A stretch of DNA of 64,000 bases from an uncultured Acidobacteriota bacterium (GCA_963782815.1 CAWALG010000041.1:184310-248309); one strand, 5' to 3'; counted from the stretch's first letter, positions 3,737 through 37,564 are shown. The notes: a model not told the origin generated them from the letters alone. Made by a program: numbers and translations.

Positions 3737-4028
3737 GATCGGACGAAGGCCTCCGCGGGGATTGTACCGTCGCTGCGCGCTTGCGCGGGGTCTTCGCCCG
3801 TTGGGCGCACCGGCGAGCGGCTCGGCCGGATGCGGCCTCGACCGTTCGCCTGACCCCGCGCAAGCGCTCCGCTCCCGCGGCGGGAGGCTCCTCCCTCGCG
3901 TTCGCTCGGGAGACTCCTCCCGCCGCGAACGTTGGCAGTAGGTCGGTGATCTATTGGATGTGCCGTTGTGGGGATGTGAAGGAAAGCTCGCCACCCTCGA
4001 TTCGAGGTTGTCGTGCGGGGCGGTTACA

Positions 4029-13257: not shown

Positions 13258-15851
13258 ATGCAGCCGGAAGCGAGCCGAACCCGCTGGTGGTGGGGAATTC
13301 TGTTCCTGTTCGCCGTCTCCGTCCGGCTGTTCCGCGTGAACTGGGACCAGACCCACTTCTTTCATCCGGACGAGCGGGCCATCGGATTTGCCGTCGACCG
13401 CCTCTCCTTTTCTCCCCTGCAGCTGAATCCGCATTTCTTCGCCTACGGCTCCCTCCCCCTGTACCTGATCAAGGTCGTCACGGCGATCGCGGGGAACTTC
13501 CGACAGGCGCTTCGCGGCTACGACTCCAGCATCTTCGTCGGACGGGAAATCTCGGCGGTCCTCGGGGCGTTGACCGCTCTTCTCCTCGCGATGCTCGGCG
13601 CGCGCCTGTACGGACGGCGGGTCGGCTTGCTGGCCGGCGTCCTGATGGCCGCCGCGGTGCTTCACGTGCAGAACTCGCACTTCGCGACGAGCGACGTTCC
13701 GCTGACCTTCCTGATTCTGCTCGCGCTCTTCTTCCTGATTCGCGTCGCGGAAACGGGGAGGCTGCGGCACTATCTCGCCGCCGGGATCGCGGCGGGCCTC
13801 GCGATCGCGACGAAGTTCAGCGCCCTCCCGATCTTCCTCGCGATCGGGATCGCAATTCTCTACCGGTGGGTCGTCGAGGGACGCAGGTTCCGGACCGTCT
13901 TGAACGGAGGCCGCGCTCCTCCTCTTCGTCGCCGTGGGATTTGCCGCCGGCCAGCCGTACGCGATCCTCGACTTTCCCGCGTTCCGCAACGACATCCTCG
14001 AGCAGAGCCGGATGGTGCGCCACGCGGGGATCTTTCCGTACACGAACCAGTACATCGGCGTTCCGAAATATCTCTACGACCTCGGCCAGATGGTCCTCTG
14101 GGGGATGGGACCGCTGCTCGGCCTGGCGGCCGTGGCGGGGACCATCCGGTGCTGCGTGGACACAATCCGGAAGCGCCGGATCGCCGAGGTCCTCCTCCTC
14201 GCCTGGGTCCTGCCGTTCTTCGCGATCACCGGTTCCTTCGACGTGAAATTCCCCCGATACCTCCTTCCGATCTACCCGATGCTGATTCTCTGGGCCGCCG
14301 CCGGGCTGGCGGCCTGGGCAGGCCGGAGCCGGATCGGGAAACTGGCGGCCGCCGCCGTCCTCGTGGCGACCCTGGCGTGGCTGGCGGCCTTCCTGCGGAT
14401 CTACACGCGGCCCCACACGGTCGTCACGGCGTCGGAGTGGTTCTATCGGAACGTCCCGAGGGGGGCGAAGGTCGCCAGCCAGCACTGGGATGAAGGATTC
14501 CCCTTCCCTCTTCCGGGAGACAGGAATCCGGATCGGTACCACATCGAGAACCTGGGCTACTACGAGCCGGACACGCCGGAGAAGATGATGCAGATCTGCA
14601 GGGAACTGGCCGCCGCGGACTACGCCGTCTTCCAGACCAAGCGGATCTATGGCGCCGTCACCAGGGCGCCGGAGAAGTTTCCCCTGACGACGCGATACTT
14701 CTCCCGGCTCTTCGCCGGCGATCTCGGGTTCACGTTGACGAACGAGTTTGCATCCCGCCCCGGGCTCTTCGGAATCGAGGCGCCCGACGAGCTCGCGGAC
14801 GAGTCCTTCACGGTCTACGACCATCCGAAGGTCATCGTGTTCCGCAACACGGCGCACCTGCCGTCCGGCGTCATCCAGCAGCGAGTGCTCACCGGCGAGC
14901 CGTCTCGCCGCATGACCCGGCGCGACATCCTGCTGGCGAAGCCTTCACGGGGGCAGGCGATAGAGCCGGCCGGCGGGAATCCGGGCGAGGAGCCGGCTCC
15001 CACAGCAGCGGCGGTCGGAGACTCCCGTTCCCGCTCCCGCCGCCCCTGCCGAGGCGAGGCCTCTCGGGAAGCTCGACCAGCCGCGCGGGATCGCCTTCAA
15101 CCGGGCGGGCCATCTGCTGGTTTGCGATTTCGGCCAGGCGCGGATCCAGGAGTTCGACCAGGCTCTGAAGCCCGTGTCGGCATGGGGCCGGCCCGGAACG
15201 GGACCGGGCGAGTTCAAGGAGTTGGGCGCGGTCGCCGTCGCGCCGGAGGGAACGATCTACGTGGCCGACACCTGGAACAGCCGGGTCCAGGAATTCGACG
15301 CAGCGGGCAAGTTCCTGCGCGAGTGGAAGAGCGAGTTCTTCGCTCCGCGCGGCATCGCCGTCGGACCGGCCGGGCGGGTCTTCGTGTCCGACACGGGGAA
15401 CCACCGGATCGTCCGCTTTTCGGGGGAGGGCGCGAAGGAGAAGGAGTGGGGAGGCCGCGGCTCCGAGCCCGGCCAGTTCTTCGATCCGATGGGCCTCGCC
15501 GTGGCGGGCGACGGGAAGGTGTTCGTCTGCGACAACGGCAACGGGCGCCTGCAGATCTTCGACCAGGACGGCCGGCCGCTCTCGGCCTTCAAGGTGCCCG
15601 GCTGGAGGCGGGAGGTGTTCTCGGAACCGCAGGTCGCCCTGGACAAGGGGGGAACGCCGTGGGTCACGGTGCCGCTCGAGAAGGAAGTGCGCCACTACTC
15701 CCCGGATGGAACGCTCCTGAAGACGATCCGGAGCCAGGACGCCGATCACGCGAAATTCGAGCGGCCCATGGGGATCGCCGTCGCTCCCGCCGGCGACGCC
15801 GTGTTCATCTCCGACCTGGAGGGCGGACTCTACCGCTTGCCCGCGCGCTGA
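13258..15851 (+). CDS. GT39/ArnT-like (PMT-family) GT-C glycosyltransferase fused to C-terminal NHL-repeat domain; 2 frameshifts
   Basis: N-terminal TM region with FHPDERAIGF (the DE motif of the PMT/ArnT family) and ATKFSALPIFLAIG. Body in frame 2 from about 13910 (GFAAGQPYAILDFPAF...). NHL repeats from about 15050 in frame 0 (GHLLVCDFGQARIQEFD, TIYVADTWNSRVQEFD, RVFVSDTGNHRIVRF, KVFVCDNGNGRLQIFD). Confidence 0.65.
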
Positions 15852-15887: not shown

Positions 15888-18737
15888 TCACGGGATCAGC
15901 ATCCAGTCGAACGAGTGGCGGTACCAGCGCAACGCGTCGACAGTGCCCTCGGGCAGAGGCGGGCCGGGGACCGCGTCCGGCGGGGGGCGCAGCGCGGCCG
16001 GGGGCACGATCGATTCCCGCTGGCCCGGCGGCGTCCACATCCAGTCGATGCCCCCCGGACTGTGCACGACGCGGTACTTGAGCGCGACCTCGTGCGGGCC
16101 CTTCGGAAGCAGCACGGCGGGGCCGCGCTCGGTCTTCTCCTCGTCGCCCCGGGTCGTCCAGAGCGGCTGGCCGTCGAGCGTCATCGCCACCGTGCCGCCG
16201 TGCGTGCGAAACCCGAAGGAGTAGCTCCCGTCCGCCGGGGCGAGCAGCGTTCCACGCCAGGAGGCCGTCAACTCGCCGTCGAGGCCGACCTCCGAGCCGA
16301 GCGACATCGACGCGATGGTCGAGTCGAGCTGCCTGCGGTCGGGGCCGCTTGAACCGGAGTAGATACCGAGGAGCCCCTGGGGGGGGCCGTCCACGGCCCA
16401 CAGCTCCGAGGCGCTCGTCCGCCGCCACGCCTCTCCGGGCGCGTCTCCTTTCCACTCGAAGAGGGCGGGGCGTCCGGGCGCATCCACCGCCGCCTCGAAG
16501 ACGATTCGATGGTCGCCTCCAGGCAGACTGACGGTCGTCTCGGCGAAGGGGTCTCCCGGCGCCGCGCGCAGGATCTCGCGCCCGTCCACGCTCACGCGCC
16601 CGGCGGCGCGGAACGAGGCGTTTCCGTAGCTGCGCACGCGGAGCGCGGCGCTCCAGCGCATCGGCGCCGGGAAGCGCGTCCAGCCCTCCGGCGCGTCGCC
16701 GAGAGCCGCCACGCGGACGGCGCCCTTCCCGGCGGCCGAGACGAGGGCGCCGCGAAACGTCTCCCACCGGGCGAGCGGCACGCGGTACACCGTCACGACC
16801 TCCCCATCTCCCGGGATGCGGGCGTCGAAGCGGGTGCCGCCCGGATAGACCTGCTCGAGATAGGGAAGGTAGTAAGGCTGACCGCTGTAGAGAAGGAAGG
16901 AAAGATCCCGGTCGGCCGGGATCGGGAGCGGCAGATCGAGACCCGGCGCCGGCAGGCTGATGCGGTTGGCTCGCGGCGCCAGCAGTCTCACCCATCCGGA
17001 GTTCACCATGTGCGCGGAAGCGCCGAGCGTGATCGCCCAGCCGTTCTTTCCCTCGGCCGCGACCGTCTCGCCCTCGATTCGGTTCCACGGCCAGCGATCG
17101 GTCGCGGCGTAGGAACCGAAGTAGAAACCGAGCTGGCCGGCCGCGATGGCGACCGCGGCGCCGCCCGCGAGCACCGTGCCGAAGAGACGAGCCGGCTTCC
17201 CGGACCCTTCCGCGGCGGAGACGAGGCCGATCCGCCGCGCCGTCTCGTCGAGCACGAGTCCCGCGAGGAGACCGAGGACCGGGATCGCCGTGGCCATGCG
17301 GTGCATGTTCGGCGTTTCGACCGTTACGATCATGCCGACGAACCCGAGCCAGAACCAGAGCGCGAGGAGGAAGAGACGGGCGTCCCCCGCCTTCGCCATC
17401 GCGGCGAAGAGTCCCAGGAGCGTGAGCGCCGCGAGGACCGGCGGGAACAGCGGCCGTTCCGTCGGCCAGGTCAGGTTCTGGTCGAGGTAGCGGTTGAAGA
17501 AGCCGAGAGAGTGCTCGACCTGGGCGGCGAGGAGTCGCGGGGTGCTCCATTCCGGATGGAAGTAGGGGAGCCGGCGTGCGTTTTCCCGGATGAACACGGT
17601 CGTCTCCCTCGCGCGCAGGGTCAGCTCCTGCGGAAGGCGCACGAAAACGAGGAGAAACGGCGCGACGGCAAGCAAGGACGCGAACGCGGCGATCGCGAGG
17701 CCGCCGGCCGTGCGCGCGCGAGTGCCTTTCGGCCCGCGCAGCAGCAGCGACAGGCCGAACGGGATCGCGATCAAGCACCAGAGACGGCCCGTCGGGTAGA
17801 AGTAGATCGAAAGCCCCCCGGCCAGGCCCGCCACGATCCAGGCCCACGCGCGGCCGCGGCGCGCGGCCTCGAGGAAGGCCGCCGCGCTGATCGCCCAGAG
17901 CGTCTGCGTGGGTTGCGCTTCGGTCGTTATTCTCGAGAACTGAATTGCGGCGCCCATCGAGGCCAGCAGCCCGCCCGACAGCAGGCCGGCGCGCCAGCCG
18001 AAGTGCCGCGCCCCGAGAGCGATCACGATCGCGACCGTCACGACGCCGCACAGCGCGCCGAAGACCCTCGCGCCGCCGACGTCGAGGCCCGAGACGGACA
18101 TCACGGCGGCGAGCAGTCGGAAGTACACCATGCTGATGTGGTACCAGCCGAAGCCGAAGAGCCCGGTATGGTTGAGGCCGCGGACGATCTGCATCGCGGG
18201 CGCGGCGCGGTCGCCCTCGTCCGGGTTGATGCCGTACGGCACGCGCGCCAGGCCCACCAGCCGCGTGACCGCGGCGACCCCGATGATGACCGCGATCGCC
18301 GCGATCAAGGCGGTGCGGCCGGCCCGCGTCGTCGGGAAACGCGCCCGGCCCCACCGCGCGGGGATGTCCAGGCGCCCGCCGGCGAAGAGCCCGCCGAGGA
18401 GGACGAGGACCAGGCTCACGATCCACCAGCCCCCCGCCGCGCCCTGCCTGTCGCTCCAGAGGGCGCGCAGGCCGACGACGCAGGCGATCAGCGAGGCAAC
18501 AAGACCTCCGGCCAACGCGACGAGTCGCCAGGAGCCGCGCGCCGCCGACTCGCCGGCGAAGCCGGGCAACGGGAACGCCTCCGGCGCGAACACCACCGCG
18601 GCGGCGATGTAGAGCGCCAGGCTCGTCCAGAAGGAGTGGCCGGTGCGGATCACCGCTTCCGCCGCGCCGGCCAGGAGCAGCGCGAAAATACACGCGGCCA
18701 GAGGCCGGAAGCGGCGCGCCGCAGTCGAGGACGTCAC
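15888..18737 (-). CDS. GT39/ArnT-like GT-C glycosyltransferase with C-terminal PA14-like domain, intact 949 aa
   Basis: About 550 aa polytopic N-terminus (INPDEGDRA, GLFGFGWYHISMVYF, many TM helices) and a C-terminal soluble domain GLLGIYSGSS...LTASWRGTLLAPADGSYSFGFRTHGGTVAMTLDGQPLWTT resembling PA14/GLEYA. Confidence 0.7.
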   Translation of the reverse strand: MTSSTAARRFRPLAACIFALLLAGAAEAVIRTGHSFWTSLALYIAAAVVFAPEAFPLPGFAGESAARGSWRLVALAGGLVASLIACVVGLRALWSDRQGAAGGWWIVSLVLVLLGGLFAGGRLDIPARWGRARFPTTRAGRTALIAAIAVIIGVAAVTRLVGLARVPYGINPDEGDRAAPAMQIVRGLNHTGLFGFGWYHISMVYFRLLAAVMSVSGLDVGGARVFGALCGVVTVAIVIALGARHFGWRAGLLSGGLLASMGAAIQFSRITTEAQPTQTLWAISAAAFLEAARRGRAWAWIVAGLAGGLSIYFYPTGRLWCLIAIPFGLSLLLRGPKGTRARTAGGLAIAAFASLLAVAPFLLVFVRLPQELTLRARETTVFIRENARRLPYFHPEWSTPRLLAAQVEHSLGFFNRYLDQNLTWPTERPLFPPVLAALTLLGLFAAMAKAGDARLFLLALWFWLGFVGMIVTVETPNMHRMATAIPVLGLLAGLVLDETARRIGLVSAAEGSGKPARLFGTVLAGGAAVAIAAGQLGFYFGSYAATDRWPWNRIEGETVAAEGKNGWAITLGASAHMVNSGWVRLLAPRANRISLPAPGLDLPLPIPADRDLSFLLYSGQPYYLPYLEQVYPGGTRFDARIPGDGEVVTVYRVPLARWETFRGALVSAAGKGAVRVAALGDAPEGWTRFPAPMRWSAALRVRSYGNASFRAAGRVSVDGREILRAAPGDPFAETTVSLPGGDHRIVFEAAVDAPGRPALFEWKGDAPGEAWRRTSASELWAVDGPPQGLLGIYSGSSGPDRRQLDSTIASMSLGSEVGLDGELTASWRGTLLAPADGSYSFGFRTHGGTVAMTLDGQPLWTTRGDEEKTERGPAVLLPKGPHEVALKYRVVHSPGGIDWMWTPPGQRESIVPPAALRPPPDAVPGPPLPEGTVDALRWYRHSFDWMLIP

Positions 18738-18799
18738 GGCGCGGTCAAGTTAGCACACCCCGTTCCGAGGAGACGTCTCCCGCCCGCGAGTCTCCGTCT

Positions 18800-20753
18800 T
18801 CAGGGCCGCCGGAAAATGTAGAACGCGATCTCTCCCGGGGCGTTTGCCGGATGGGACTCGATGACGGCATCGGGGAACCGCGACCGGAGGGCCGCCACGA
18901 TCGAGTCCTTGTCCGGAGAGAGAACGAGCGTCCTGGAGGGATCGAAATGGCCCTGCTCGACCTGCGCGGGGTCCAGATCTCCGACGAGCTGTCCCGGCGC
19001 GAGGAAGCGGAACTCACGGTTGAGCGCCCACCAGTACGGCACCCCGACGGAATACGCATGAAACTCGGGCCGCGCCGCGAGGTACCGCGCCAGGTGTCCG
19101 GCGCTCGTGGCCCAGCTCCTGAAACTCTTCTCGTACCAGGTCCAGTTCGCAAGGCCGGTCAGCGTGAACGCGATCCCCAGGGCAACGCCCGGCACGAGCC
19201 GGCCCAGCCGGTCTTTTGTCTGAAAAGAGCGCCTCGACCGAGGCAGAGAGGCGCTCGAGAGCCACGCCGCCCAGAAGCGCCGCGGGGACGACGAGAATCA
19301 CCAGGCGTGGAAAGAACGGAGCATTGATCGTCAGAAAGCAGCCGAGGAAGAGGATCATCAGGAGCCAGCCCAGGGAGAGCGCGCTGCCGAGCCGGCGCAA
19401 GGTGAAAAGGGCATAGCCGATCCCGAGAGCCAGTGCCATGGCGCTGAAGTCGTCCAGGAACGCCCGCCGGGCTCCAAACTGAGTGCTGGCGTCCGTATAG
19501 GTCCAGAACAGGAGGGCGCTTCGCCGGGCCTGCTGGGCGAGCACGCCGGCGAGCGACGTCACCTTGTAACCGGACTCCATGTGATGAAGGGGGTCCGGGG
19601 TGAACACGAGCACCTCTCGACTGCGGCTGACGAAGGCTTCGCGGTCGCGTACGAAGAGGAAGAGCATCGGCCCCAGCACGATGACGATCGCGAGAGCCAG
19701 CAGAACGAGTTCGCGCCATCGGGAAAGGAGCCACTCGCGGCTCCTGCATACGATGAGCAGGACGGCCATCGCGGCGAGGAATACGACGGCGCGACCCGAG
19801 TAATACATCTCCAGGTCGAACGCGATGAGCGCGCCGCTCGCCACCGCCGCCAGGCCGCTGCCGGACCTCAAGGCGCGCACGAGCAGATACAACGCCCAGA
19901 CCGTGAAGAAGACCGGATCGATGTATGCGCAAGTCCGGCTGAAATGGAGGTGCGTGTACGAAATCGTCATCAGGGCCGCCGCCAGAACACCTGCTCGAGG
20001 ACCGAAGAGGTCGCGGCCCAGGAGGTAGACGGCGACGATCACCAGCAGGCCCTCGATCACCCCCGCCAGGTAGAGGCCGGTGAGACCCGTTCCCGCGATC
20101 TTCATAGTCAGGGCCGCGGGCATGAATCCCATCAACGGAATGACCGCCCAGCCGTACGCAAACAGGTGTTTCTCCTCGCCGAGAGCGATCGCGCGCGCCT
20201 GCAAGCCGAAGTCGGCGTAGTCCCCGTCGAGGTTGTAAGGCAAAGTGCCGAGGTGATACATACGGCTGGCGAGCGCCACGGCGAAGAGCAGGACGAGAAC
20301 CGCGGCCTGGACCCTCCCGCCGGTGACCCGCTCGTGCTGACCTCGTGAGCGCCACTGGCCGACGAAGAGCGCGAGAACGCTCACGAGCCAGGCGGCATCG
20401 ACAACGCGGTCCTCTTGCGTCTTTACGAAGCGAAGCATCGCGTAAGCGGCCGAGAGCAGGCTCAGGAGCGTCCAGGAGGACGTCCATATGTCGAGCCGTG
20501 TGCGCGATCGGGGCGGCCTCGCCGGGATATCGAGGGCCGCTTCCGGAGACGCCGGCTGGCGGGCGAGCGCGCCAAAGAGGAGAGCCGCGGCCAGGAGCGT
20601 CAATCCGCCGGAGAGGTGCCAGCGCGCCTGACCGAGCCTGGAGGTGTGTTGAACCAGGCGGGCACCGGCGATCGCGATGGGAATGGCCGCGAGCATCCCG
20701 GCGACCCGAAGAAGCGAAGGGCGCGAATCCGTCACGGGAGTTATGGGAGACAC
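18800..20753 (-). CDS. GT39/ArnT-like GT-C glycosyltransferase paralog; 1 frameshift near 19200
   Basis: N-terminal 530 aa in frame of 20753 (LGTLPYNLDGDYADFGLQARAIALGEEKHLFAYGW...), C-terminal 130 aa in ORF 18800..19195 (VGVPYWWALNREFRFLAPGQ...). Confidence 0.6.
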
Positions 20754-20772
20754 GCGGTCATTCGATGGGAGC

Positions 20773-21255
20773 CTAACGTGGCGAGATCGTCAGATCCTTC
20801 GTCCCCAACCCTTTCCATGAAGTCGGAGTGGTGCTCGAGGCTTCGCGGCCGAACATCTTCTCCACGCGATATGCACCCGGAGGCCAGGACGACGTGTCTT
20901 TCACGGCGAACCAGACGAAGCCGCCCGACGACAGAGGCTTCTGCTCTTCGCCCATCCGCACGTCGCCGTCGATGCGCTTCCAGATCACCCTGGCGGACGC
21001 TCCGGAAGGCGCGTTTCGAACCACGAACGCGATGTGGATCGGGTCGCCTGCGGTGAACTTGTCCGTCTCAGCCGTGACCTTGCCGTCCGCCGCGGCGGTC
21101 CTGCCGATCTGGAACTTGTCTTCGTACGTGTCCGGGTTGTTCGAGCGGGGTTGAGAGCTCGCGTCGCCCGACGCGGACGAGCCGGAGCCCTTGCCTCCAC
21201 ACGCGCCGCACAGGAGAGCGAGGGAAAGAGCCAGCGCGGTCATGATGGTCTTCAT
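20773..21255 (-). CDS. Small secreted lipoprotein-like protein
   Basis: MKTIMTALALSLALLCGACGG signal peptide with Cys, then low-complexity Ser/Gly linker and a small beta-rich domain. Sits between two GT39 paralogs on the same strand. Confidence 0.6.
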   Translation of the reverse strand: MKTIMTALALSLALLCGACGGKGSGSSASGDASSQPRSNNPDTYEDKFQIGRTAAADGKVTAETDKFTAGDPIHIAFVVRNAPSGASARVIWKRIDGDVRMGEEQKPLSSGGFVWFAVKDTSSWPPGAYRVEKMFGREASSTTPTSWKGLGTKDLTISPR

Positions 21256-21353: not shown

Positions 21354-23429
21354 TCAAGAGCCGGTCTGTGCGGAGAGAGAGCGGGGCTCTGCCGGGCGCC
21401 CCGCCGGCGCCTTCGGCGGGAGCGCCAGCAAGGCCAGAGCCGCCGCGAGAAGGAGACCGGTGGCCCAGCCGGCGGCCGACGTCTTTCCGAACGTGTTGTA
21501 AGGAGGCGCCGGCGGTGTTCCGGCCGGCGCGATCTGCACGGATCGAAAATGCAGCCAGCCGTGGCTGACGTGCCCCAGCGCTTGCGCCGAAGGGAACCTC
21601 TGTTGCAGGAGAGGCAACAGGCTCTGCGAGTGATTGGGCGTCAGGATCACCACGGTCGGCTTTTCCACCGCCGTCAGAAGACGGATGTCCTCCTCCGTCA
21701 CGTCCGTCCCGTCCGCGCCCCTGCAGAAGAACCGGAGCGTCCGGTCCAGGAAAGAAAGGGGATCGCGAACGAGGAGGATGCGCGTGCCGGCCGGCAGCCC
21801 GTCAATGAAGCGCGCCACGGCACAGTAAGGGCCGGCATTGTCCTCGATCGCGCGCCGGTAGCCACGCCAATTCTCGATGGCGGTGCCCGCGAGCACAGTA
21901 ATAAGGACCCCCGCGGTAACAAGCTTCGCCGGCCGCCCGAACGATTCGCCGAAGAGCGCGAGGAGCCGCTGCATTCCCAGCGCCGAGAGCACGGCAACGG
22001 CGGGCAGGGCCGCCACGAGGTGCACCCAGTCCGGAGGGTCGAGGGTCAGGACCCCGCCAACGATCAGCACAATCAGCAGCCACGACAGGAGCGCAAGCGC
22101 TCCGGGGCTCGTGGGGTGGCGGAGCATGAGCCCGAGGCCGAGCAGGAGAAACGCCGCGGTCGGGCCATCGACGAGAGGGCCCTGGTAGCCGAACTCGGAG
22201 CTCGAGTCGCCGAACACGTGGAAGGTCAGAAAGGTCCGGCGCGTCTGCTCCAGGAGCATCGCCGGGATCGTGTGGACGCCGTACTTCGTCATGGAATGGA
22301 TGCGGTTGGGCGGCGTGAAGACCATTGTCTCCGCCGTGCGCGCGACCATTGCCCGGGGCGTCCGCGCATAGAAGACGAGCATCGGCCCGATGGTCAGGAG
22401 CGCCGCCGCGGCCATCACGGTCCAGTCCATCAGGCGCCGCCGAACGTCCCCTCTGCGCTTTGCGAGGTCCCCGATCAGGATCACGGCCGCGAGAACCGGG
22501 GCTACCCGCCCCGATAAGTAGAGCAGGCAGGCCGCGCCGCCGGTGAAGCCCGCCAGCGCGAACCACCAACGGCCGCCCGTGCGGAGCCCTCGCAGGAGCA
22601 GGGCAACCATGAGAGTCACGGCGAGCACCGCCGCCGGCGTGTAGATGACGCGCGAAAAGTGGATCGCCGTGTAGCTCGTGGCCAGGAGGGCGGCGGCAAA
22701 CAATCCGACGCCCCGGCCGCCGACCTCGCGGCCCAGGAAGTAGACCGCCCCGATCTGAAGCGTGCCAAACAGGACCGACTGGATCATCAATCCGTGGAGG
22801 TTCAGGCCGAACACCGACGTAGAGATCCGGATGAGGTTGTATGAGACCAGGGGATGATTACCGTCGCCGACGCCGATCCAGTGCGGACTATTGATGAGCG
22901 CGACGACCTGGAGGCCCACCGAGCCGAAATCGGCGTCCAGCTCCGCCGGCCAGTCGGTCAGCCGCACGTACCGGAGGGCGAAGCCGAGGGCCGCGAGCGC
23001 GAAGAGGAGCGCGACCTCCCACCACCGCGCGCCGCCTTCCGCCGACGCTTCGATCGTTCCGCGACTGCGCGAAAAAGAGAAGAGAAAGAGCAGAGTCCCC
23101 GCCGCCCAGAGGATCTCAACTGCGAGGCTCTCGCCGGAAACGGCGTAGAGCACGGCCGCCAGCACGCCACACGCGACGCCGGCCGCCGAGATGGCGCGCC
23201 GGACCGGCCGGAGACGCGACGCGCCGGCTGCGGCCGACACACCGGGCCGGGCAGCCGCGAACATGGCCAGGAGAATGGCCGCGCCGAGGCAGAGGACCCC
23301 CAGGCGAAAGCTGGATTCAGATCCGATGCCCGCGAGCCGGAGACGATGGGTCAGGATGGCGTGGCCGACGAGCGCGGAGACGAGCGCGGCAATGAGAAAG
23401 GCGAGCGCGGTCCTGGGAAGCCGGCTCAC
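21354..23429 (-). CDS. GT39/ArnT-like GT-C glycosyltransferase paralog, intact 691 aa
   Basis: Polytopic membrane protein with LTDWPAELDADFGSVGLQ..., AIHFSRVIYTPAAV, FYARTPRAMV. Same architecture as the 19014..20753 paralog. ATGA overlap with the upstream methyltransferase. Confidence 0.7.
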   Translation of the reverse strand: MSRLPRTALAFLIAALVSALVGHAILTHRLRLAGIGSESSFRLGVLCLGAAILLAMFAAARPGVSAAAGASRLRPVRRAISAAGVACGVLAAVLYAVSGESLAVEILWAAGTLLFLFSFSRSRGTIEASAEGGARWWEVALLFALAALGFALRYVRLTDWPAELDADFGSVGLQVVALINSPHWIGVGDGNHPLVSYNLIRISTSVFGLNLHGLMIQSVLFGTLQIGAVYFLGREVGGRGVGLFAAALLATSYTAIHFSRVIYTPAAVLAVTLMVALLLRGLRTGGRWWFALAGFTGGAACLLYLSGRVAPVLAAVILIGDLAKRRGDVRRRLMDWTVMAAAALLTIGPMLVFYARTPRAMVARTAETMVFTPPNRIHSMTKYGVHTIPAMLLEQTRRTFLTFHVFGDSSSEFGYQGPLVDGPTAAFLLLGLGLMLRHPTSPGALALLSWLLIVLIVGGVLTLDPPDWVHLVAALPAVAVLSALGMQRLLALFGESFGRPAKLVTAGVLITVLAGTAIENWRGYRRAIEDNAGPYCAVARFIDGLPAGTRILLVRDPLSFLDRTLRFFCRGADGTDVTEEDIRLLTAVEKPTVVILTPNHSQSLLPLLQQRFPSAQALGHVSHGWLHFRSVQIAPAGTPPAPPYNTFGKTSAAGWATGLLLAAALALLALPPKAPAGRPAEPRSLSAQTGS

Positions 23430-24170
23430 GAGTCGAAGGCCCGCCCGGGCCCGGACTCCGCGGGTTTTCTTCCGAGGACCTCATACTGAGCTCCCAGAGG
23501 CATCCTCGAGACGATCGGTTCGAGCCAGCGGAGCCACGCGAGGGCTTTCGGGAACAGGAAGAGAAAATCCGTCCGCACAATCTCGAACCCGCCCGCGCGA
23601 AGAAGTCCGCGGGCCTCCGGCGGAGTGAGTGTGACGGCATCCTTGTCGAATTCGCATCGGCTCATCAGGAACTTCGTGGCCGGGTTCCACGGGTTTTGCT
23701 CCCACAGGGAAAAGAGCCCGCCAGGCTTGAGAGACCGGAAAAGAGTCTGAATGGCCGACGCCCGTTCGGAGACGGGAATGTGATGGAAGACGCAGCTCGA
23801 GAACACGAGGTCCACGCTTTCATCCGGCTCGAGCTCCTTTCGGGACAGGAAGGACGTGCGCGCGCCGCCGAAGCCGCGGCGGGCCACCTCGATGAGCTTC
23901 GGCGAGTCTTCGACTCCGAGCACACTTTCGGCGTTCAGCAACTGGTGGATCCATGGAGTGGTCGATCCCGTCCCGCAGCCGAAATCCATCACCGAGCGAG
24001 GACGCAGGCCCAACTCGTCCAGTTGTCGCGCGAGCCAGGCGATCCTCCCGCGCGCGTAGTATTCCTTCCCCTCTCCGGAGACAGCGAGCGTCTTCTCGAG
24101 AATCTCGTTGTAATCCTCCGCGTACCTGTCGAAAGCGGGGGGCGCGGAAACAACGCTCCTCGCGTTGAAC
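23426..24170 (-). CDS. Class I SAM-dependent methyltransferase; N-terminus unresolved (frameshift)
   Basis: VMDFGCGTGSTT motif I, DLVFSSCVFHHIP, LKPGGLF. Upstream in-frame region encodes FNARSVVSAPPAFDRYAEDYNEILEKTL but lacks a canonical start before an in-frame stop. Confidence 0.65.
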
Positions 24171-24351: not shown

Positions 24352-25359
24352 TTGGAAAAGGTCTACCTCTCCACGGTGACACCCGTCTTTCAGGGTGCCG
24401 ACTATCTGGCGGAGCTCGTCGAAGCCCTGGCGGCCGTGCGCGACGAGTTCGAATCCAAAGACTTTCCGATCGTAATGACCGAGGCGATCTTCGTCAACGA
24501 CGAACCGATCGACGGCTCCGCCCGCCTGCTGGAGGGCCTCCGGGCCACATACCCCTGGGTCAAGACCGTCCAGCTTTCCCGAAACTTTGGACAGCACCCG
24601 GCGACCGTGGCCGGTATTCTCCACTCTTCGGGCGATTGGGTCGCCACTCTCGACGAGGACCTTCAACATCACCCGCGATTGCTCCTTCCGCTCCTTCTTC
24701 ACTGCGTGACGCAAGACCTCGATGTCGTCTATGCGAGGGCCGAAAGCCCGGTTCACCAGTCCGGATTTCGCGACGTTTCTTCGCGGCTCTTCAAGACCCT
24801 CGTCAGCAGGCTCACGGGCAATCCACACATCCGGAAGTTCAATAGCTTTCGAGTGATGCGCGGCAGCATCGGGCGGGCCGCTGCGGCCGTCTCGGCCCAC
24901 GACACCTACTTCGACATTTCGCTCAGCTGGTTTACAAACCGGATTGGCGCTCTCACCCTTCCGCTGAAGGACCGGCGGTACATCGAACAGCAGAAGAGCG
25001 GGTATGGAATCCCGGATCTGCTGCGGCATGCCTGGAAGATGATGGCATCTTCAGAGCTGAGAATCCTCCGGATCGGGGCCACCGTGGGAGTTCTCTCCCT
25101 TGTCGGCAGCGTCGCGCTGGCGGTCGCCACGATCGCGGTAAAGATCCTCTTTCCCCAGACGATCCCGGTTCCGGGCTGGACATCGCTGCTCCTGGTGACC
25201 CTCTTCTTCGGAGGGTTGATCTCCTTCCTCGCCGGCATCGGTCTCGAGCTGATCACGGCGCTCGTGGTCCAGGCCAAGGGCAAGCCGGCGTTCTTCGTGA
25301 TCGACCGCAACAAGGACGACTGTCTTCGTGCCTGGGCGCAAACCCTCGGCAGCAGATGA
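24352..25359 (+). CDS. GT2-family polyprenol-phosphate glycosyltransferase with C-terminal TM helices (GtrB/ArnC-like)
   Basis: TVTPVFQGADYL..., NDEPIDGSA, LSRNFGQHPA, TLDEDLQHHP (DxD region), two C-terminal TM helices. TTG start at 24352, other start possible. Confidence 0.75.
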   Translation: MEKVYLSTVTPVFQGADYLAELVEALAAVRDEFESKDFPIVMTEAIFVNDEPIDGSARLLEGLRATYPWVKTVQLSRNFGQHPATVAGILHSSGDWVATLDEDLQHHPRLLLPLLLHCVTQDLDVVYARAESPVHQSGFRDVSSRLFKTLVSRLTGNPHIRKFNSFRVMRGSIGRAAAAVSAHDTYFDISLSWFTNRIGALTLPLKDRRYIEQQKSGYGIPDLLRHAWKMMASSELRILRIGATVGVLSLVGSVALAVATIAVKILFPQTIPVPGWTSLLLVTLFFGGLISFLAGIGLELITALVVQAKGKPAFFVIDRNKDDCLRAWAQTLGSR

Positions 25360-26315: not shown

Positions 26316-26489
26316 GGGACCGTGAAGGTCCCCCGCGGCAAGCTCCGACCAGCGATACGGGATCTTGTGCCAAATGGGCGGATCGTGCTACGTTCGCCGA
26401 AGACCCCGGTACGACTGCCGCTGCGGAGGTGAGTATTGAGGCTCTATTTGACCGGATGGGCAAGGATTCTCCAGGACACGGTCGTTCGC

Positions 26490-27056
26490 ATGCCAGGAAA
26501 GACCGTTCCTGGGCTCTGGCGGACCCGTCGAGACTTCCTTGGCGTCCTGGTGGGAGCCGTCCTCCTGGCGGCCTTCGGGCTCTTGGAAGGGTGCAAGTCT
26601 GAAAAGCCTTCCTCCGAATCATCCGAAGCCATGCCTGTTCAAACCCCGACCAATCTCGGCGACATGTCGGTCAAGGGCGTCTCGCAAGGGTGGGGGACGC
26701 TCCACTTCGACCTCAACGTGACCGGCACGCCCCTCTCGATTGGCGGAAAGGGGTACAAGACGGGCCTCGGGACCCATGCGATCTCGCGGATCGAGATCTC
26801 CTTCCCCGCCAACTACAAGACGTTCACCGGGTCGTGCGGCGTGGACGACGCTGTGGAGAACCGCGGCTCGATCGTGTGCAAGATCCTGGACGGCCAGAAG
26901 GTTCTCTTCGAGAGCCCGGTGATGAAGGGGAAAATGAAAGCGGCGGACTTCAGCGTCCCTGTGAACGCGCTGACCGGCCTGGTCCTGATCGTCGAGAACG
27001 GTGGGGACGACATCGATTCGGACCACGCGGACTGGGTCAATCTGAGCCTCAAGTAG
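26490..27056 (+). CDS. NPCBM (NEW2) carbohydrate-binding-module lipoprotein with Tat-like signal
   Basis: RRDFLGVLVGAVLLAAFGLLEGC (twin-Arg plus lipobox Cys). SIGGKGYKTGLGTHAISRIEISFP...GSCGVDDAVENRGSIVCKILDGQKVLFESP...DHADWVNLSL match the NPCBM/GH98-associated module. ORF track starts at 26436 (alternative start). Confidence 0.75.
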   Translation: MPGKTVPGLWRTRRDFLGVLVGAVLLAAFGLLEGCKSEKPSSESSEAMPVQTPTNLGDMSVKGVSQGWGTLHFDLNVTGTPLSIGGKGYKTGLGTHAISRIEISFPANYKTFTGSCGVDDAVENRGSIVCKILDGQKVLFESPVMKGKMKAADFSVPVNALTGLVLIVENGGDDIDSDHADWVNLSLK

Positions 27057-27168: not shown

Positions 27169-27951
27169 TCAGAGCTTCAGACGCTTGAAGATCTTCTCCG
27201 GAATGAGGCGGATCAGGAGCATCACGAGCCGCCAGAACCGGGGCACGTATGCCTGGTCCTTCTCCTTGAGGATGGCCTGGACGATTTCCCTTGCCGCGGC
27301 CTGCGGCGAGGCGACCAGGAAGAGGCCGGACCGGCCATACGTCATCTGGGTGTCCACGAATCCCGGCTTGATCGTGATGACCCGGACGCCGGAGCGGGAG
27401 AGCCGGTTGCGAAGCCCCTGGAGGAAGACGGTGAGCCCCGCCTTCGCGGCCCCGTACATGTAGTTGCTCTGCCGCCCGCGGTCGCCGGCGACCGAGGAGA
27501 GCGCGCAGAGGAAGCCGCCGCCTTTCTCTTCGAGGTGGTTTGCCAGGAGGCTCAGGATCGAGACGGCGCCGAGCAGGTTCGTGTCGAAAATCCGCTTCGC
27601 CTCCGCCGGATCCTTCTGCGCGACGGACTGGTCGCCGAGGTAGCCGAAGCAGAGAACGGCGCCGGCCAGCGAGTCTTCCGACCCCTCGCGGCAGGCCGCA
27701 AGGAATGCGCCGTGCGTGTCGAGGGCCGTCGCGTCGAACGGCCGGGCCTCCGCCCGGACGCCGTGGCGCAGCCGGAGATCGGTGGCGAGGGCGTCGAGCT
27801 CTTCCGGATCGCGCCCGGCGAGCTGCAGGTCGAAGCCCCGGCGCGCGAGCTCGTCCGCGATGGCCCTCGCGATCGCCGAGGCGGCTCCGAGAATCAAGAC
27901 CGTCCGGCCGGGCGGAACGGGGACTCTCGGGGCGGCGGTCCCGGCGGTCAT
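27169..27951 (-). CDS. dprE2: DprE2 homolog: decaprenylphospho-2-keto-beta-D-erythro-pentose reductase-like SDR
   Basis: 260 aa. TVLILGAASAIARAIADEL, SSVAGDRGRQSNYMYGAAKAGL (YxxxK), C-terminus VPRFWRLVMLLIRLIPEKIFKRLKL aligns to M. tuberculosis DprE2 end (...[21 protein letters not shown]). TGATG overlap with dprE1. Confidence 0.8.
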   Translation of the reverse strand: MTAGTAAPRVPVPPGRTVLILGAASAIARAIADELARRGFDLQLAGRDPEELDALATDLRLRHGVRAEARPFDATALDTHGAFLAACREGSEDSLAGAVLCFGYLGDQSVAQKDPAEAKRIFDTNLLGAVSILSLLANHLEEKGGGFLCALSSVAGDRGRQSNYMYGAAKAGLTVFLQGLRNRLSRSGVRVITIKPGFVDTQMTYGRSGLFLVASPQAAAREIVQAILKEKDQAYVPRFWRLVMLLIRLIPEKIFKRLKL

Positions 27952-29309
27952 CACGGGAGGATCCCCACGCGGCGCGCCTGAGAAGAGGAAAACCTGTTCC
28001 CCGGGTCGAGCCCCGCCCGGATCCGGCGGAACTCGTCGAGCCCGGGATACATCGCGGCGAAGGTGTCGCGGGCCATGAGGGCGTCCTTGGCGAGGTAGAG
28101 GCGGCCGCCGTGGCGGAGGACGAGCGCGTCGAGGTTCGCCAGGAACGGGGCCAGGTCTTTCGTGACCGGGAGGTCGAGGGCGAGCGTGTAACCGGGGAAC
28201 GGGAAGGAGAGAAGCCCGGCGGTGGCGCCGCCGAAGCGTTTGAGCACTCCGAGAAAGGAACCGCGGCCCGAGGCGCTGACCCGCTCGAGCACCTGCGTCA
28301 GGCCCGCCCGGCTCGTCTCCGGGGGGAACGCGAGCTGGTACTGGACGAAGCCGCGCCGTCCGTACATCCGGTTCCAGCCGCGGATCGAATCGAGGGGATA
28401 GAAGAAGCTGTCGATGTCGGCGAGACGCCCCGAAACCGTCCGGTGCAGCCGGTAGAAGAGGGCGTTGAAGGCGCCGACCGTGAGCGGATTCAGGAGCCCG
28501 GAGGGGAAATCCACCGGAACGGCTCGCTCGGCGCGGCGCCGGGGCGACAGCGGATCCCCGGAATTCTTCGGCAGGTCGCTCCGCATCGCGGGGTTGGCGC
28601 GCATCAGGACCGACCGGCCGAGCGCCTTCCCCCTCGCCAGGCAGTCGATCCACGCCACCGAGAACTCGTAGAGGTGATCCGACTCCTCCATCGCGTCGAT
28701 CGCCGCCTCGAAGTGCGGGACCTTCCGGTAGTCCACCAGGACGTGCGCCGTCTCGACGCGTTGAAGGCGCAGGCGGGCGGAGAGGATCAGGCCGGTCAGC
28801 CCCGCGCCGCCGACGGTCGCCCGGAACGCCTCGGAGTTCTCCCGGGGGGAGCAGGTGAGGACCTCTCCCTGCGACGTCGCCAGCCGGAAGTCGAGCACGA
28901 AGTTGGAGATCGATCCGACCTTGTGGTGGTTCTTGCCGTGGACGTCGTGGGCGATCGCTCCCCCGAGGGTCACGAACTTCGTCCCGGGCGTCACCGGCAG
29001 GAAGAAACCGCGGGGGAGGAAGCAATCGAGGATCTCCGCGAGCGTGACGCCGGCTTCGCACTCCAGGACGGCTGTTTCGGGGTCGAACGCGATCAGGCGG
29101 TTCAGGCGCTCGAAGACGATGACGCCGCCGCCTCCGTTCACGGCGGCGTCCCCGTAGCTTCGCCCCACGCCCCGGGCGATGTACGTCGCCTCCCCGCCGG
29201 AATCCAGGATCGCCGCGAGACTCGCGCGCTTCTCGGGACGAAAGACCCGGCAGGTCTCCACCGGGAATCGGCCCCAACCGGAAAGCGGGCGAACCGCCGA
29301 CGGCTCCAT
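27951..29309 (-). CDS. dprE1: DprE1 homolog: FAD-dependent decaprenylphosphoryl-beta-D-ribose 2-prime oxidase-like
   Basis: Intact 452 aa. LSGWGRFP, GRSYGDAAVNGGGGVI, GTKFVTLGGAIAHDVHGKNHH, ATVGGAGLTGLIL, FYPLDSIRGWNRMYGRRGFVQYQLAFP, GGRLYLAKD align block by block with M. tuberculosis DprE1 (Rv3790). Confidence 0.85.
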   Translation of the reverse strand: MEPSAVRPLSGWGRFPVETCRVFRPEKRASLAAILDSGGEATYIARGVGRSYGDAAVNGGGGVIVFERLNRLIAFDPETAVLECEAGVTLAEILDCFLPRGFFLPVTPGTKFVTLGGAIAHDVHGKNHHKVGSISNFVLDFRLATSQGEVLTCSPRENSEAFRATVGGAGLTGLILSARLRLQRVETAHVLVDYRKVPHFEAAIDAMEESDHLYEFSVAWIDCLARGKALGRSVLMRANPAMRSDLPKNSGDPLSPRRRAERAVPVDFPSGLLNPLTVGAFNALFYRLHRTVSGRLADIDSFFYPLDSIRGWNRMYGRRGFVQYQLAFPPETSRAGLTQVLERVSASGRGSFLGVLKRFGGATAGLLSFPFPGYTLALDLPVTKDLAPFLANLDALVLRHGGRLYLAKDALMARDTFAAMYPGLDEFRRIRAGLDPGNRFSSSQARRVGILP

Positions 29310-29351
29310 GGTCTTCGGGCTTCTATCTGCCGCGAGGCGTCGGATTGAGGC

Positions 29352-31514
29352 TCATGGGCTGCCGACGACCCGGTAGATCGTGGTGCCGCCCGAGAAGGCG
29401 GGAATGAGGAACGGGAGCGAGGCGACGTTGTCGGCGGCGGGATAGGTGCGGCGTTCCATGTCGCCGACGATGACGTGGGTGACCTTGTACTTCTGAACCA
29501 CCAGGGCGGCGGTCCGCGGATCGCTCGCGGTGTAGAACGCCTTGACGGCGGCGGATCGTTGCGCGACCTCCGGGTCGTTGGACCGCCAGAGCCCCTCGTG
29601 GTTTGCCCAGCCGAGCACCGTCGGGATTCCCGTGTGCGAGGAGATCCGCGCGAACTCCGAATAGGGATCCCCGGTCGCCTCGAGGAGGACCGACTTGCCC
29701 GGCGCGCGGCCGACGAGCCACTCGATCGCCGCCGCGTCCCCGGAGTTGCGCCGGGCGAGCGCCCCGCGCAGGTCGAGCGAGAAGGCGCCTTCGCGCTGCC
29801 GGAACCGGGAGACCGCGGCCTCGCGGGATAGAGGAGGGAAAGCAGCATCGCCGCCGTCAGCGTGAATCGAACCGCGAGGGACCGGTGTCCGGCCTCGCGC
29901 CACGCGCGCTCGGCCAGCACCGCGCCGCCGACGGCGAGGAGCGGCCATGCCTGATGGTAGAACTTGAAGATCGTGTTCATGCGCTGAAGGGCCTGTCCGT
30001 ACGAGTCCTTGAAGTAGATGAACTCGCACCCGGCGATCATGCCGACGGCCAGGACGATCAGGAAGGCCGTGAAGAGGTCGTCCGGATTCCCCTCCGGGGA
30101 CCTGACCGCCCTCAGCGCGAGGCGCACGCCGAGGAACCCGAGGGGCAGGATCGCGACGAGCGCGGGCGCCTTCGCGAAGAAGGCGGCGAGAAGGCACGCG
30201 CCCGCGGAAATCGCGACGACGAGGTCCCTCCGGCGGCGCGATTCCTCGTCTCTCTCCGGACCGGGCGGCGCGAGAAACCCGGCGTAACCCGCCGCGAGGA
30301 GGATGGCCCAGACCCCCAGGAACTCCGTCAGGTCCGACGTCAGCGTGGTCCTGCCCAGCCCCTGCGTCTGGAGCGCGTAGGAGCGCGAATAGGGGTAGAA
30401 GAGAAGGAGCGAGACGATCAGGAGTCCGACCCCCGTGATTGCTCCCGTCAGCGCGTCCGCCGGCGAAGGGAGGCGCCGGCCTCCCGTGGTCCGGAACAGG
30501 CAGGTGCAGACGAGGAGGAGACCCATCGCCGGCAGGTTCCAGTTGTTGGCCGCGCGGGCGGTGCCCGCGAGGAGCGTCAGGAGGAAGAGGGGCCAGGCCT
30601 TGCGGAGCAGGTCGGACACCTTCCAGGGGGAGGGGAGCGGCTCCGGGGGGATCTGCAGATAGCGGTGCGCCGCCACGAACGCGGCGATGTAGAAGGGAAA
30701 GGCGGCCAGGTGCGGATGCAGGTCCGCGTGAAAGAACGTGAAGAACGGGAACTCGTTGATCGTGTTTCCCGAGGCGATGACGCGGGAGGCGTGCCAGTAG
30801 TCGAACTCCTTCGCGAAGGGGGCGTGCCAGGCGTCCAGGGCGCCGATCAGGTTCCCGGCGAAGACCGCGCCGATCCCGGCCCAGACTCCCGCGGCCCTCC
30901 GGCCGCCGGAGAGGCGCAGCGCCAGGCAGGCCGCCGCCGTGAAGGAGTAGCCGGCGAAGGTCGCGATCGCGAGGTTGTAGGCCACGAACGTCCGGACCTC
31001 CGAGAGCTTCGCGAGCGCGGCCGCGAGCAGATATCCCCAGTAGTAGTAGTTGATCGTGGCGCCCGACATCCAGGGATCGGCGGGAGGCATGGCGCCGAAC
31101 CGGGTCAGCGAGTTCAAGAACGCGAGGTCCATGAACTTCTCCGCCCCGAGGACCTCGGGCTGGGCCGCCCGGATGAGAATGAAGACGGCCGCCGGAATCC
31201 AGAAGTAGAGCGCCGCGCGTTTCTCCTCGGGTCCCAAAGAACCGCTCGGCGGGTCCTCCCGCGCGCCGCGCCGCGCGACTGACGAGGAAGGAAGCCGTCC
31301 CGACGAGGACGAGGGCGAGGAGCAGGGTTCCCCGCTCGAACCCGATGCTCTTCGAAAGAGACAGGACCCATCCCAGGTAGGCCACCAGCGCCAGCCCCAC
31401 CGGGCGGGAGAGGAGGGCCGCGTCGCGCCGGTCCTCGAAGAAGGCCCGGAGCAGCGGGAGGCACGCGAGGCCCAGCACCTCGACGGTGAGGACCCAAATC
31501 AAGATGTCGCGCAC
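29352..31514 (-). CDS. DUF2298 (YYY-like) integral membrane protein paralog (no NHL tail); 2 compensating frameshifts
   Basis: N-terminus MRDILIWVLTVEVLGLACLPLL... (frame of 31514). Middle in frame of 31237 (EKFMDLAFLNSLTRF, MNTIFKFYHQAWPLLAVG). C-terminus back in first frame (LLEATGDPYSEFARISSHTGIPTVLGWANHEGLWRSN...YRVVGSP). Collinear with the 9741..13022 protein. Confidence 0.65.
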   Translation of the reverse strand: MRDILIWVLTVEVLGLACLPLLRAFFEDRRDAALLSRPVGLALVAYLGWVLSLSKSIGFERGTLLLALVLVGTASFLVSRAARRAGGPAERFFGTRGETRGALLLDSGGRLHSHPGGPARGPRGGEVHGPRVLELADPVRRHASRRSLDVGRHDQLLLLGISARGRAREALGGPDVRGLQPRDRDLRRLLLHGGGLPGAAPLRRPEGRGSLGRDRRGLRREPDRRPGRLARPLREGVRLLARLPRHRLGKHDQRVPVLHVLSRGPASAPGRLSLLHRRVRGGAPLSADPPGAAPLPLEGVRPAPQGLAPLPPDAPRGHRPRGQQLEPAGDGSPPRLHLPVPDHGRPAPPFAGGRADGSNHGGRTPDRLAPSLLPLFALLRAPDAGAGQDHADVGPDGVPGGLGHPPRGGLRRVSRAARSGERRGIAPPEGPRRRDFRGRVPSRRLLREGARARRDPAPRVPRRAPRAEGGQVPGGESGRPLHGLPDRPGRRHDRRVRVHLLQGLVRTGPSAHEHDLQVLPSGMAAPRRRRRGAGRARVARGRTPVPRGSIHADGGDAAFPPLSREAAVSRFRQREGAFSLDLRGALARRNSGDAAAIEWLVGRAPGKSVLLEATGDPYSEFARISSHTGIPTVLGWANHEGLWRSNDPEVAQRSAAVKAFYTASDPRTAALVVQKYKVTHVIVGDMERRTYPAADNVASLPFLIPAFSGGTTIYRVVGSP

Positions 31515-36363: not shown

Positions 36364-36397
36364 GATTTTTCGCAAGCGGTAACGGGAGGTTCTGAAA

Positions 36398-37547: not shown

Positions 37548-37564
37548 GCCAGTCTCCGCCCAGG

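Follow-up and report, generated by a model that had tools for sequence, protein, structure and literature searches.

A clade-specific DUF2298-DprE1-DprE2 gene cluster and a probable polyprenyl-phospho-pentofuranose donor route in an uncultured Acidobacteriota bacterium

The stretch of 64,000 nt analysed here (hereafter the window) belongs to an uncultured soil Acidobacteriota bacterium (GCA_963782815.1 CAWALG010000041.1:184310-248309) and has a G+C content of 68%. Its minus strand carries, between positions 27,169 and 31,514, the genes for homologues of DprE1 and DprE2, the two mycobacterial enzymes that epimerise lipid-linked ribofuranose, directly preceded by the gene for a membrane protein of the DUF2298 family. 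A gene for a UbiA-type phosphoribosyltransferase is found elsewhere in the window. The closest relatives of the window proteins come from metagenome-assembled genomes (MAGs) labelled Thermoanaerobaculia or Acidobacteriota, and the window is best explained as part of a chromosomal glycan island of such an uncultured bacterium.

The intact gene at 27951..29309 (minus strand) encodes a protein of 452 aa, which is predicted to be a DprE1-like polyprenyl-phospho-ribofuranose 2'-oxidase dependent on flavin adenine dinucleotide (FAD). Among PDB entries, its top matches are the DprE1 proteins of Mycobacterium tuberculosis and M. smegmatis (E 1.7e-98, 334 bits, residues 7-450). The homology covers both domains over the full length and is separated by a clear gap from other oxidases of the FAD_binding_4 family, such as xylitol, glycolate, lactone and cytokinin oxidases, which reach at most ~40 bits. 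Identity with M. tuberculosis DprE1 amounts to 40% over 443 aligned residues. In the HMMER alignment, the equivalents of the catalytic Lys418 and of His132, Lys134, Gln334, Gln336, Tyr60, Lys367 and Tyr415 are kept, and four positions of the substrate pocket are substituted compared to the M. tuberculosis enzyme (C387A, N385T, Y314F and S228V). Hence, of the two active-site residues named in the initial annotation, Lys418 has its equivalent but Cys387 is replaced by Ala. In M. tuberculosis DprE1, Cys387 is the covalent benzothiazinone site and is not known to be required for catalysis. Against the DprE1 equivalog model of NCBIfam (NF053785), the protein obtained 479.7 bits (E 1e-143), which is below the cut-off of 500 bits, as is the score of its intact ortholog (489.1 bits). 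Five further DprE1 homologues (P0261, P0309, P0310, P0340 and P0383) have a length of 670-700 aa, of which only about the first 440 residues match DprE1; the remaining ~250 may represent a fused short-chain dehydrogenase/reductase (SDR) of the DprE2 type.

The stop codon of DprE1 shares its final base with the start codon of DprE2, a 1-nt overlap that reads TGATG. The DprE2 gene is likewise intact (27169..27951, minus strand) and encodes a predicted DprE2-like SDR of 260 aa with 2'-keto reductase function. Its best solved homologue is M. tuberculosis DprE2 (E 5.5e-33, 36% identity), well ahead of the next SDR at 1.5e-18, and the alignment covers the C-terminal tail of both proteins down to their final residues. 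The YxxxK motif of SDR proteins is kept as YGAAK. The protein exceeds the cut-off of the NF005489/PRK07102 model (297 against 267 bits) but remains below that of the DprE2 model NF053786 (196.4 against 250 bits), for which the intact ortholog scored 202.9 bits.

The third gene of this group (29352..31514, minus strand) encodes a DUF2298/Chlor_Arch_YYY membrane protein, identified by matches to Pfam PF10060 (E 5e-91) and TIGR03662. Compared to an intact ortholog of 720 aa, the gene loses its frame twice, with one base inserted near 31232 and one deleted near 29822. Its stop codon precedes the DprE1 start by 42 nt, and no terminator-like site was found in between, in a promoter and terminator scan that was uninformative for the window, since it returned zero promoter-like sites and terminator-like sites at chance rate. 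Given the TGATG overlap and the 42-nt spacer without such a site, DUF2298, DprE1 and DprE2 likely form an operon. An AlphaFold2 model was computed for the intact ortholog P0121 from an alignment of 33 sequences (mean pLDDT 83, pTM 0.89). It displays a type C glycosyltransferase (GT-C) fold, in which the C-terminal domain is AglB-like, and superposes on solved GT-C enzymes. The seven best Foldseek matches in the PDB are all GT-C enzymes; first among them is the M. tuberculosis arabinofuranosyltransferase AftA (E 1.9e-6), marginally ahead of DPY19, AglB, STT3 and PglB. At the level of sequence, the DUF2298 profile matched zero PDB chains at E<=10, so that the family is remote from every solved GT-C. 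An Asp31 that is invariant in the 33 sequences and located just past the first transmembrane helix (residues 2-26) is a candidate catalytic acid of the kind known from GT-C enzymes, and a further conserved stretch reads GW.NHEGLW. A literature search for DUF2298 returned two incidental mentions only.

A second operon lies on the plus strand at 4013-7070 and consists of three genes that overlap at their stop and start codons. The first gene (~4013..4971, one frameshift near 4700) encodes a UbiA-type polyprenyl-phosphate phosphoribosyltransferase of the decaprenylphosphoryl-phosphoribose (DPPR) synthase type. After frame correction, the sole PDB matches at E<=0.001 are the structures 8j8j and 8j8k of M. 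tuberculosis decaprenyl-phosphate phosphoribosyltransferase (E 8e-34). The specific homology to this solved enzyme (Rv3806c) includes the NDxxDxxxD...HPxKRxRP region, where YLVNDVKDRERDRAHPVKRRRPLATG aligns with the almost identical M. tuberculosis sequence YLVNDVRDVEADREHPTKRFRPIAAG. The best NCBIfam models, PRK12324 DPPR-synthase, gave 182 and 175 bits for the corrected protein, below the respective cut-offs of 234 and 207 bits; its intact ortholog of 319 aa in the related locus L010 (17270-18229) reached 193 of the 234 bits in PRK12324. In the PRK08238 model, the match is confined to the UbiA part, and no HAD phosphatase domain is fused to the protein. The second gene (4961..5713, overlapping the UbiA stop codon; PF00535) encodes a glycosyltransferase of family 2 (GT2) resembling polyprenyl-phosphate sugar synthases of the ArnC or dolichol-phosphate mannose synthase (DPMS) type, with ArnC (1e-18) and Pyrococcus DPMS (4e-15) as top PDB matches. 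The third gene (5710..7070, overlapping the GT2 stop codon) shows two frameshifts and encodes a homologue of eukaryote-type UDP-galactopyranose mutase (UGM), which matches the enzymes of Trypanosoma cruzi (E 2e-56) and Aspergillus fumigatus (E 1e-54), and no bacterial Glf is found among its PDB matches at E<=0.001. Several motifs of the A. fumigatus enzyme look, by eye, conserved. In L010, the UGM ortholog is intact (452 aa). The operon might supply a lipid-linked galactofuranose (Galf) donor, judging from these family assignments; a literature search combining such a donor with GT-C enzymes found nothing. The gene order is loosely reminiscent of mycobacterial ubiA-glfT2-glf, with the reservation that the window GT2 is not GlfT2-like.

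In its gene-level claims, the initial annotation is borne out: it had proposed intact DprE1 and DprE2 homologues overlapping by TGATG, a GT-C-like DUF2298 protein immediately upstream, and a DPPR-synthase-type UbiA gene at ~4029..4971, whose start we place slightly further upstream and whose signature is present after frameshift correction. The gaps between the best and the next PDB matches also agree with its view that the trio is specifically related to DPPR synthase, DprE1 and DprE2, not to generic FAD oxidases or SDR proteins.

The genomic context of the DprE pair was compared in 85 DprE1-bearing loci, i.e. 80 metagenome loci fetched with the window DprE1 plus the contigs L001-L005. According to DprE1 identity, they form two groups with a sharp boundary. 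Where DprE1 is 55-63% identical, the loci are almost throughout UbiA-DprE1-DprE2 operons, for example in Terriglobia and Dehalococcoidia, and none of them contains DUF2298. UbiA occurs in 54 of the 85 loci and is placed directly upstream of DprE1 on the same strand, save for a Dehalococcoidia operon (L003) with divergent orientation. Such sister operons connect DprE1 and DprE2 with a phosphoribosyl-lipid as substrate. In the other group, comprising all 12 metagenome loci with 66-85% identical DprE1, the position of UbiA is taken by DUF2298, which lies on the DprE1 strand 12-131 nt upstream, and the same replacement is found in the close MAG contigs L001 and L002. Ten more DUF2298-DprE1-DprE2 loci exist among GTDB species genomes (DprE1 64-89% identical), so that DUF2298 is directly upstream of DprE1 in 24 of 24 Thermoanaerobaculia-clade loci examined. 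DprE2 follows directly downstream in the metagenome, L001 and L002 loci with DUF2298 wherever the contig reaches; in related loci that extend far enough its distance to DprE1 is at most ~350 nt, with L105 (~2.1 kb) as exception. The genes past DprE2 differ among the window, L001 and L002. Since the order of the three genes is invariant while the downstream genes vary, DUF2298-DprE1-DprE2 forms a unit within the clade.

A different picture emerged for the orthologs of DUF2298, which were examined in 80 loci from Thermoanaerobaculia/Acidobacteriota species. A neighbouring LigD gene is kept in 43 of them. A family-wide association of DUF2298 with DprE1/E2 was rejected, because the pair was found in only 10 of the 80 loci, which leaves the clade-specific operon. 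In L010, the DUF2298 ortholog lies ~3 kb from the intact UbiA-GT2-UGM operon, and DprE1/E2 are not nearby. Nine loci without DprE1/E2 at this position (L011, L013, L016, L018, L022, L036, L046, L052 and L057; ~14100-20100 in each) carry, ~1-2 kb downstream of DUF2298 and beyond an unannotated stretch, an epimerase/dehydratase-like open reading frame (ORF) and a membrane protein of ~1,650-1,740 aa, the N-terminus of which resembles the window GT-C at 13300. A general genetic link between D-arabinofuranose (Araf) and Galf was likewise rejected, as UGM was found in none of the 85 DprE1 loci; an 'Amino_oxidase' gene beside the Dehalococcoidia operon was considered but is not UGM-like.

Starting from the homologies, the catalytic residues, the operon structure and the DUF2298 fold described above, we consider it likely that the island encodes the core of the known polyprenyl-phospho-pentofuranose route and makes a polyprenyl-phospho-D-arabinofuranose donor. 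In the proposed scheme, in which every chemical step, the lipid length and the acceptor are inferred, UbiA would transfer the phosphoribosyl moiety of phosphoribosyl pyrophosphate to the lipid carrier, yielding polyprenyl-phospho-ribose 5-phosphate, and a phosphatase encoded outside the window would then remove the 5'-phosphate to give polyprenyl-phospho-ribofuranose. The DprE1-like flavoenzyme would oxidise the 2'-OH of the ribose, and the translationally coupled DprE2-like SDR would reduce the 2'-keto intermediate to polyprenyl-phospho-D-arabinofuranose. After flipping of the lipid, periplasmic GT-C enzymes are expected to add Araf to an envelope glycan or protein.

Several observations weigh against this proposal. 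All three enzymes as well as their intact orthologs score below the NCBIfam equivalog cut-offs (orthologs: DprE1 489/500, DprE2 203/250, DPPR synthase 193/234), which we assume to reflect thresholds tuned to Actinobacteria and not another function. The UbiA and DUF2298 genes are frame-shifted in this assembly. UbiA is located 23 kb from DprE1/E2 in its own operon with GT2 and UGM, and its L010 ortholog has no DprE1/E2 within 10 kb; hence, UbiA may also supply ribofuranose as such. Among the scanned window ORFs, including small hydrophobic ones, neither an Rv3807c-like PAP2 or HAD phosphoribose phosphatase nor a flippase of the GtrA, SMR or MATE type was found. The same is true for an Rv3789-like gene in the window. 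With phosphatase and flippase not found within the 64 kb, calling the pathway complete, as the initial annotation did, goes too far. Moreover, only 10 of the 80 DUF2298 loci mentioned above have DprE1/E2 within 10 kb.

Even if the donor is made as proposed, the enzyme that uses it has to be considered separately. The co-transcribed DUF2298 protein is our leading candidate for the Araf transferase, a tentative assignment to which the PMT_2-type GT-Cs of the window are alternatives. It is nearly as probable as not that the donor pathway is real but that DUF2298 is not the transferase, and that a PMT_2-type or other GT-C encoded in the genome uses the Araf donor. This would fit the 70 of 80 orthologous DUF2298 loci in which DprE1/E2 are not within 10 kb, the sampled ones having the epimerase-like ORF and the ~1,700-aa membrane protein instead, and also the UbiA-DprE1-DprE2 operons of other lineages, which lack a nearby DUF2298 gene; one of them (L004) is accompanied by YfhO- and PMT_2-type GT-Cs. 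However, the invariant order in 24 of 24 clade loci with variable downstream genes argues for a role of DUF2298 itself, as does its link to the UbiA-GT2-UGM operon: its L010 ortholog lies close to these genes, and the window has another DUF2298 paralog, with fused NHL repeats (9741..13022, minus strand; PF10060 E 1e-79, NHL E 2e-35), that converges on them. We conclude that the link between DUF2298 and pentofuranose genes is real but clade-specific and, with only 10 of 80 loci containing DprE1/E2, falls short of proving which donor DUF2298 uses.

The initial annotation had regarded the many neighbouring GT-Cs as candidate arabinosyltransferases. The abundance of GT-C genes agrees with this suggestion, but none of those tested in the window matched the Pfam families of Emb, AftA, AftB or AftD type; instead, they match PMT_2, DUF2298 or, weakly, PIG-V and Alg9. 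A more far-reaching scenario, which we regard as rather unlikely, is that DUF2298, with its AglB-like C-terminal domain, represents a previously unassigned GT-C family and, in this Thermoanaerobaculia clade, would use the operon-made polyprenyl-phospho-D-arabinofuranose for the arabinosylation of an envelope glycan or protein, and that, together with UbiA-GT2-UGM, the island would build an extracytoplasmic Araf/Galf surface polymer.

It is improbable that the DprE1/E2-like pair acts on another lipid-linked or soluble substrate, forming another epimer or a 2-keto sugar and no Araf donor at all. The scores below the equivalog cut-offs, the substrate-pocket changes compared to M. tuberculosis (N385T, C387A, Y314F and S228V) and the separation of the pair from UbiA, with DUF2298 joined to it in this clade, are in line with such a different activity. 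However, the DprE1-like protein has kept the Lys418 equivalent and the residues on the flavin side, the nearest outgroup loci are almost all UbiA-DprE1-DprE2 operons, and a DPPR-synthase-type UbiA is encoded in the same window. Furthermore, D-Araf was the product in every characterised use of DprE1/E2 homologues, i.e. in mycobacteria, for the Pa5196 pilin and in the O-antigens of Kelly et al.

In the codon-position G+C plot, many abrupt frame switches are visible within evident single genes, and gene calls in the window need frameshift-aware handling. Compared to intact orthologs from sister MAGs, single-base indels were localised near ~4700, ~6538, ~6760, ~9397, ~29822 and ~31232, and an in-frame stop near ~7526, which adds up to six frameshifts and one stop in ~9 kb of glycan genes (one frameshift in UbiA, two in the UGM-like gene, two in DUF2298, and one plus the in-frame stop in a GT-C/NHL gene). 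DprE1, DprE2 and one GT2 show zero frameshifts. Every broken gene aligns end to end with its ortholog at 73-90% amino-acid identity, with no additional decay. The sister contig L001 has a private 1-nt deletion in DUF2298 at a site different from those in the window, and the region of an apparent aspartokinase/homoserine dehydrogenase (54200-55770) is likewise split over frames. Many of the related loci are found in Acidobacteriota MAGs with MFD labels, whose contigs range from hundreds of kb to several Mb and which we take as long-read assemblies. Given the end-to-end conservation, the private indel of the sister contig and the split of an apparent housekeeping gene, the indels are probably assembly errors of the long-read type and not signs of pseudogenisation. 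A decaying pathway, in which the frameshifts of UbiA, DUF2298, GT-C and UGM would be real and the DprE pair an orphan remnant, would explain the density of these lesions but is very improbable in the light of the same observations, the intact DprE1, DprE2 and GT2 genes, and the indel errors to be expected if the related MAGs are long-read assemblies.

The likely donor route is by no means a rarity outside the Actinobacteria, as the initial annotation had implied. A word-indexed search with the window DprE1 retrieved at least 8,000 proteins at E<=1e-30, many of which already carry the JGI name 'decaprenylphospho-beta-D-ribofuranose 2-oxidase'. When 1.84 billion cluster representatives were scanned exhaustively with HMMER, 1,981 DprE1-family clusters (50% identity) were obtained at the same threshold, and more than 150 of them outscore the mycobacterial DprE1 against the window protein. 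On plasmids, a tblastn search of PLSDB detected full-length DprE1 homologues in 65 records, with Rhizobium (34), Sinorhizobium, Cereibacter, Salipiger, Ruegeria and Agrobacterium among the hosts, besides three Bacteroidota, one cyanobacterium, Legionella and the acidobacterium Granulicella tundricola. The gene order on a Rhizobium leguminosarum plasmid is UbiA, GtrA, FAD-binding oxidoreductase and SDR, and pACIX904 of G. tundricola carries a FAD-oxidoreductase/SDR pair with UbiA ~8 kb away. Together with the UbiA operons in 54 of 85 loci, these counts speak against the implied rarity, and so does published work. It was demonstrated experimentally that a polyprenyl-phosphoribose synthase dependent on phosphoribosyl pyrophosphate, a flippase and a GT-C add pentofuranoses in the periplasm; such three-component systems, including the GT136 founding member, are widespread, and Gram-negative loci for Araf-containing glycans including O-antigens carry DprE1/E2 homologues (Kelly et al., 2024, PNAS, PMC11127046). 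A further Gram-negative precedent is the arabinosylation of the Pseudomonas aeruginosa Pa5196 pilin with DprE1/E2 homologues (bioRxiv 10.1101/2020.04.19.049825). Our literature search with DprE1/DprE2 or decaprenylphospho- terms and Acidobacteria found nothing relevant; hence, the view that the system is undescribed in this lineage stands as far as Acidobacteriota papers are concerned, but the general system has already been described by Kelly et al. (2024).

Among known systems, the mycobacterial pathway to decaprenyl-phospho-arabinofuranose (Rv3806c, Rv3807c, DprE1 Rv3790, DprE2 Rv3791 and the Emb/Aft transferases) contains the best solved homologues of the window trio. Shared features are the adjacency of DprE1 and DprE2, the Lys418 equivalent, the YxxxK motif and, presumably, periplasmic GT-Cs as users of the donor. 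The window differs by its Acidobacteriota host, the only 36-40% identical DprE1 and DprE2 proteins with scores below cut-off, Ala in place of Cys387, GT-Cs that do not match the Emb/Aft families among those tested, and Rv3807c- and Rv3789-like genes not being found in it. The systems of Kelly et al. (2024, PMC11127046) consist of a phosphoribose synthase, optional DprE1/E2 epimerases, a flippase and a GT-C, often with a carbohydrate-binding module, which resembles the NPCBM, PA14 and NHL modules on or beside the window GT-Cs. Unlike in those systems, the window synthase has no fused HAD domain, MATE, SMR or GtrA proteins were not found in the window, DUF2298 takes the GT-C position beside the epimerases, and the genes are distributed over two operons 23 kb apart. 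The pilin system of P. aeruginosa Pa5196/PA7 likewise combines Gram-negative homologues of DPPR synthase, DprE1 and DprE2 with a GT-C, TfpW, which acts on protein, but no pilin gene is adjacent to the window operon. The plasmid operons with UbiA(-HAD), GtrA, FAD-oxidoreductase and SDR in Rhizobium, other Proteobacteria and Granulicella encode DprE1 homologues of 41-51% identity beside SDR, UbiA and often GtrA. They keep UbiA and a GtrA candidate together, whereas the window clade has DUF2298 in the place of UbiA. In contrast to AglB, STT3 and PglB, DUF2298 lacks the WWDYG motif and has no sequence similarity to any PDB chain (E<=10).

Hence, the system belongs to a known, widespread class, for which Kelly et al. 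(2024) already set out the general mechanism, and no new principle is involved. New is the clade-specific DUF2298-DprE1-DprE2 operon, with DUF2298 as GT-C partner being the one new testable lead. For DUF2298, a large family of membrane proteins that has no assigned function, the invariant operon offers a first functional hypothesis open to testing. DprE1/DprE2 homologues are very common outside Actinobacteria and hidden by their annotation as 'FAD-binding oxidoreductase' and 'SDR family oxidoreductase'. D-Arabinofuranose is usually regarded as characteristic of mycobacterial cell walls. If the donor route is correct, this sugar would be a normal envelope constituent in a class of soil Acidobacteriota that is widespread and has hardly been cultured. 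If the less likely furanoside polymer existed as well, an Araf/Galf surface polymer would be made outside the cytoplasm in a phylum without a known example.

In the window, about ten GT-C-type genes were counted: six of the PMT_2 type (one recognised via its L010 ortholog only), two DUF2298 genes and a weak PIG-V-like match. A PMT_2-type GT-C fused to NHL repeats (7202..9799, minus strand) has a frameshift near 9397 and the in-frame stop near 7526; the NHL part was matched in the window copy, and the intact L010 ortholog of 860 aa comprises both PMT_2 and NHL. A second GT-C of this architecture (13300..15851, plus strand), with matches to PMT_2, PMT and NHL, is frame-shifted. Family matches define three further PMT_2-type GT-Cs on the minus strand, one with a C-terminal PA14 domain (15888..18749) and two at 19014..20789 and 21354..23480. 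Four successive GT-Cs (7202-18749) thus have C-terminal extracytoplasmic modules, three NHL beta-propellers and one PA14. Convergent with DprE2, a secreted protein with an NPCBM carbohydrate-binding module is encoded at 26436..27056 (plus strand; PF08305, E 5e-35). The NHL, PA14 and NPCBM modules are possible acceptor-binding domains.

Three polyprenyl-phosphate sugar synthases of the ArnC/DPMS/GtrB type are present in the window. Besides the GT2 in the UbiA operon, a GtrB/ArnC-type GT2 with C-terminal transmembrane helices is encoded at 24352..25359 (plus strand), and one is located beside a DegT aminotransferase. In this region (36383-38698, plus strand), genes for a DegT/ArnB-like aminotransferase, an ArnC-like GT2 and a small cupin/WxcM-like protein stand in a row, an arrangement reminiscent of lipid-linked amino-sugar donor modules. 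Close to the end of the window, a large frame-shifted ORF (60340-63897, plus strand) probably encodes an RHS/YD-repeat protein, judging from repeated YD-type motifs such as YSYDSLGRV, YRYDAFGRLTSV and YAYDANGKLTGV read from its translation.

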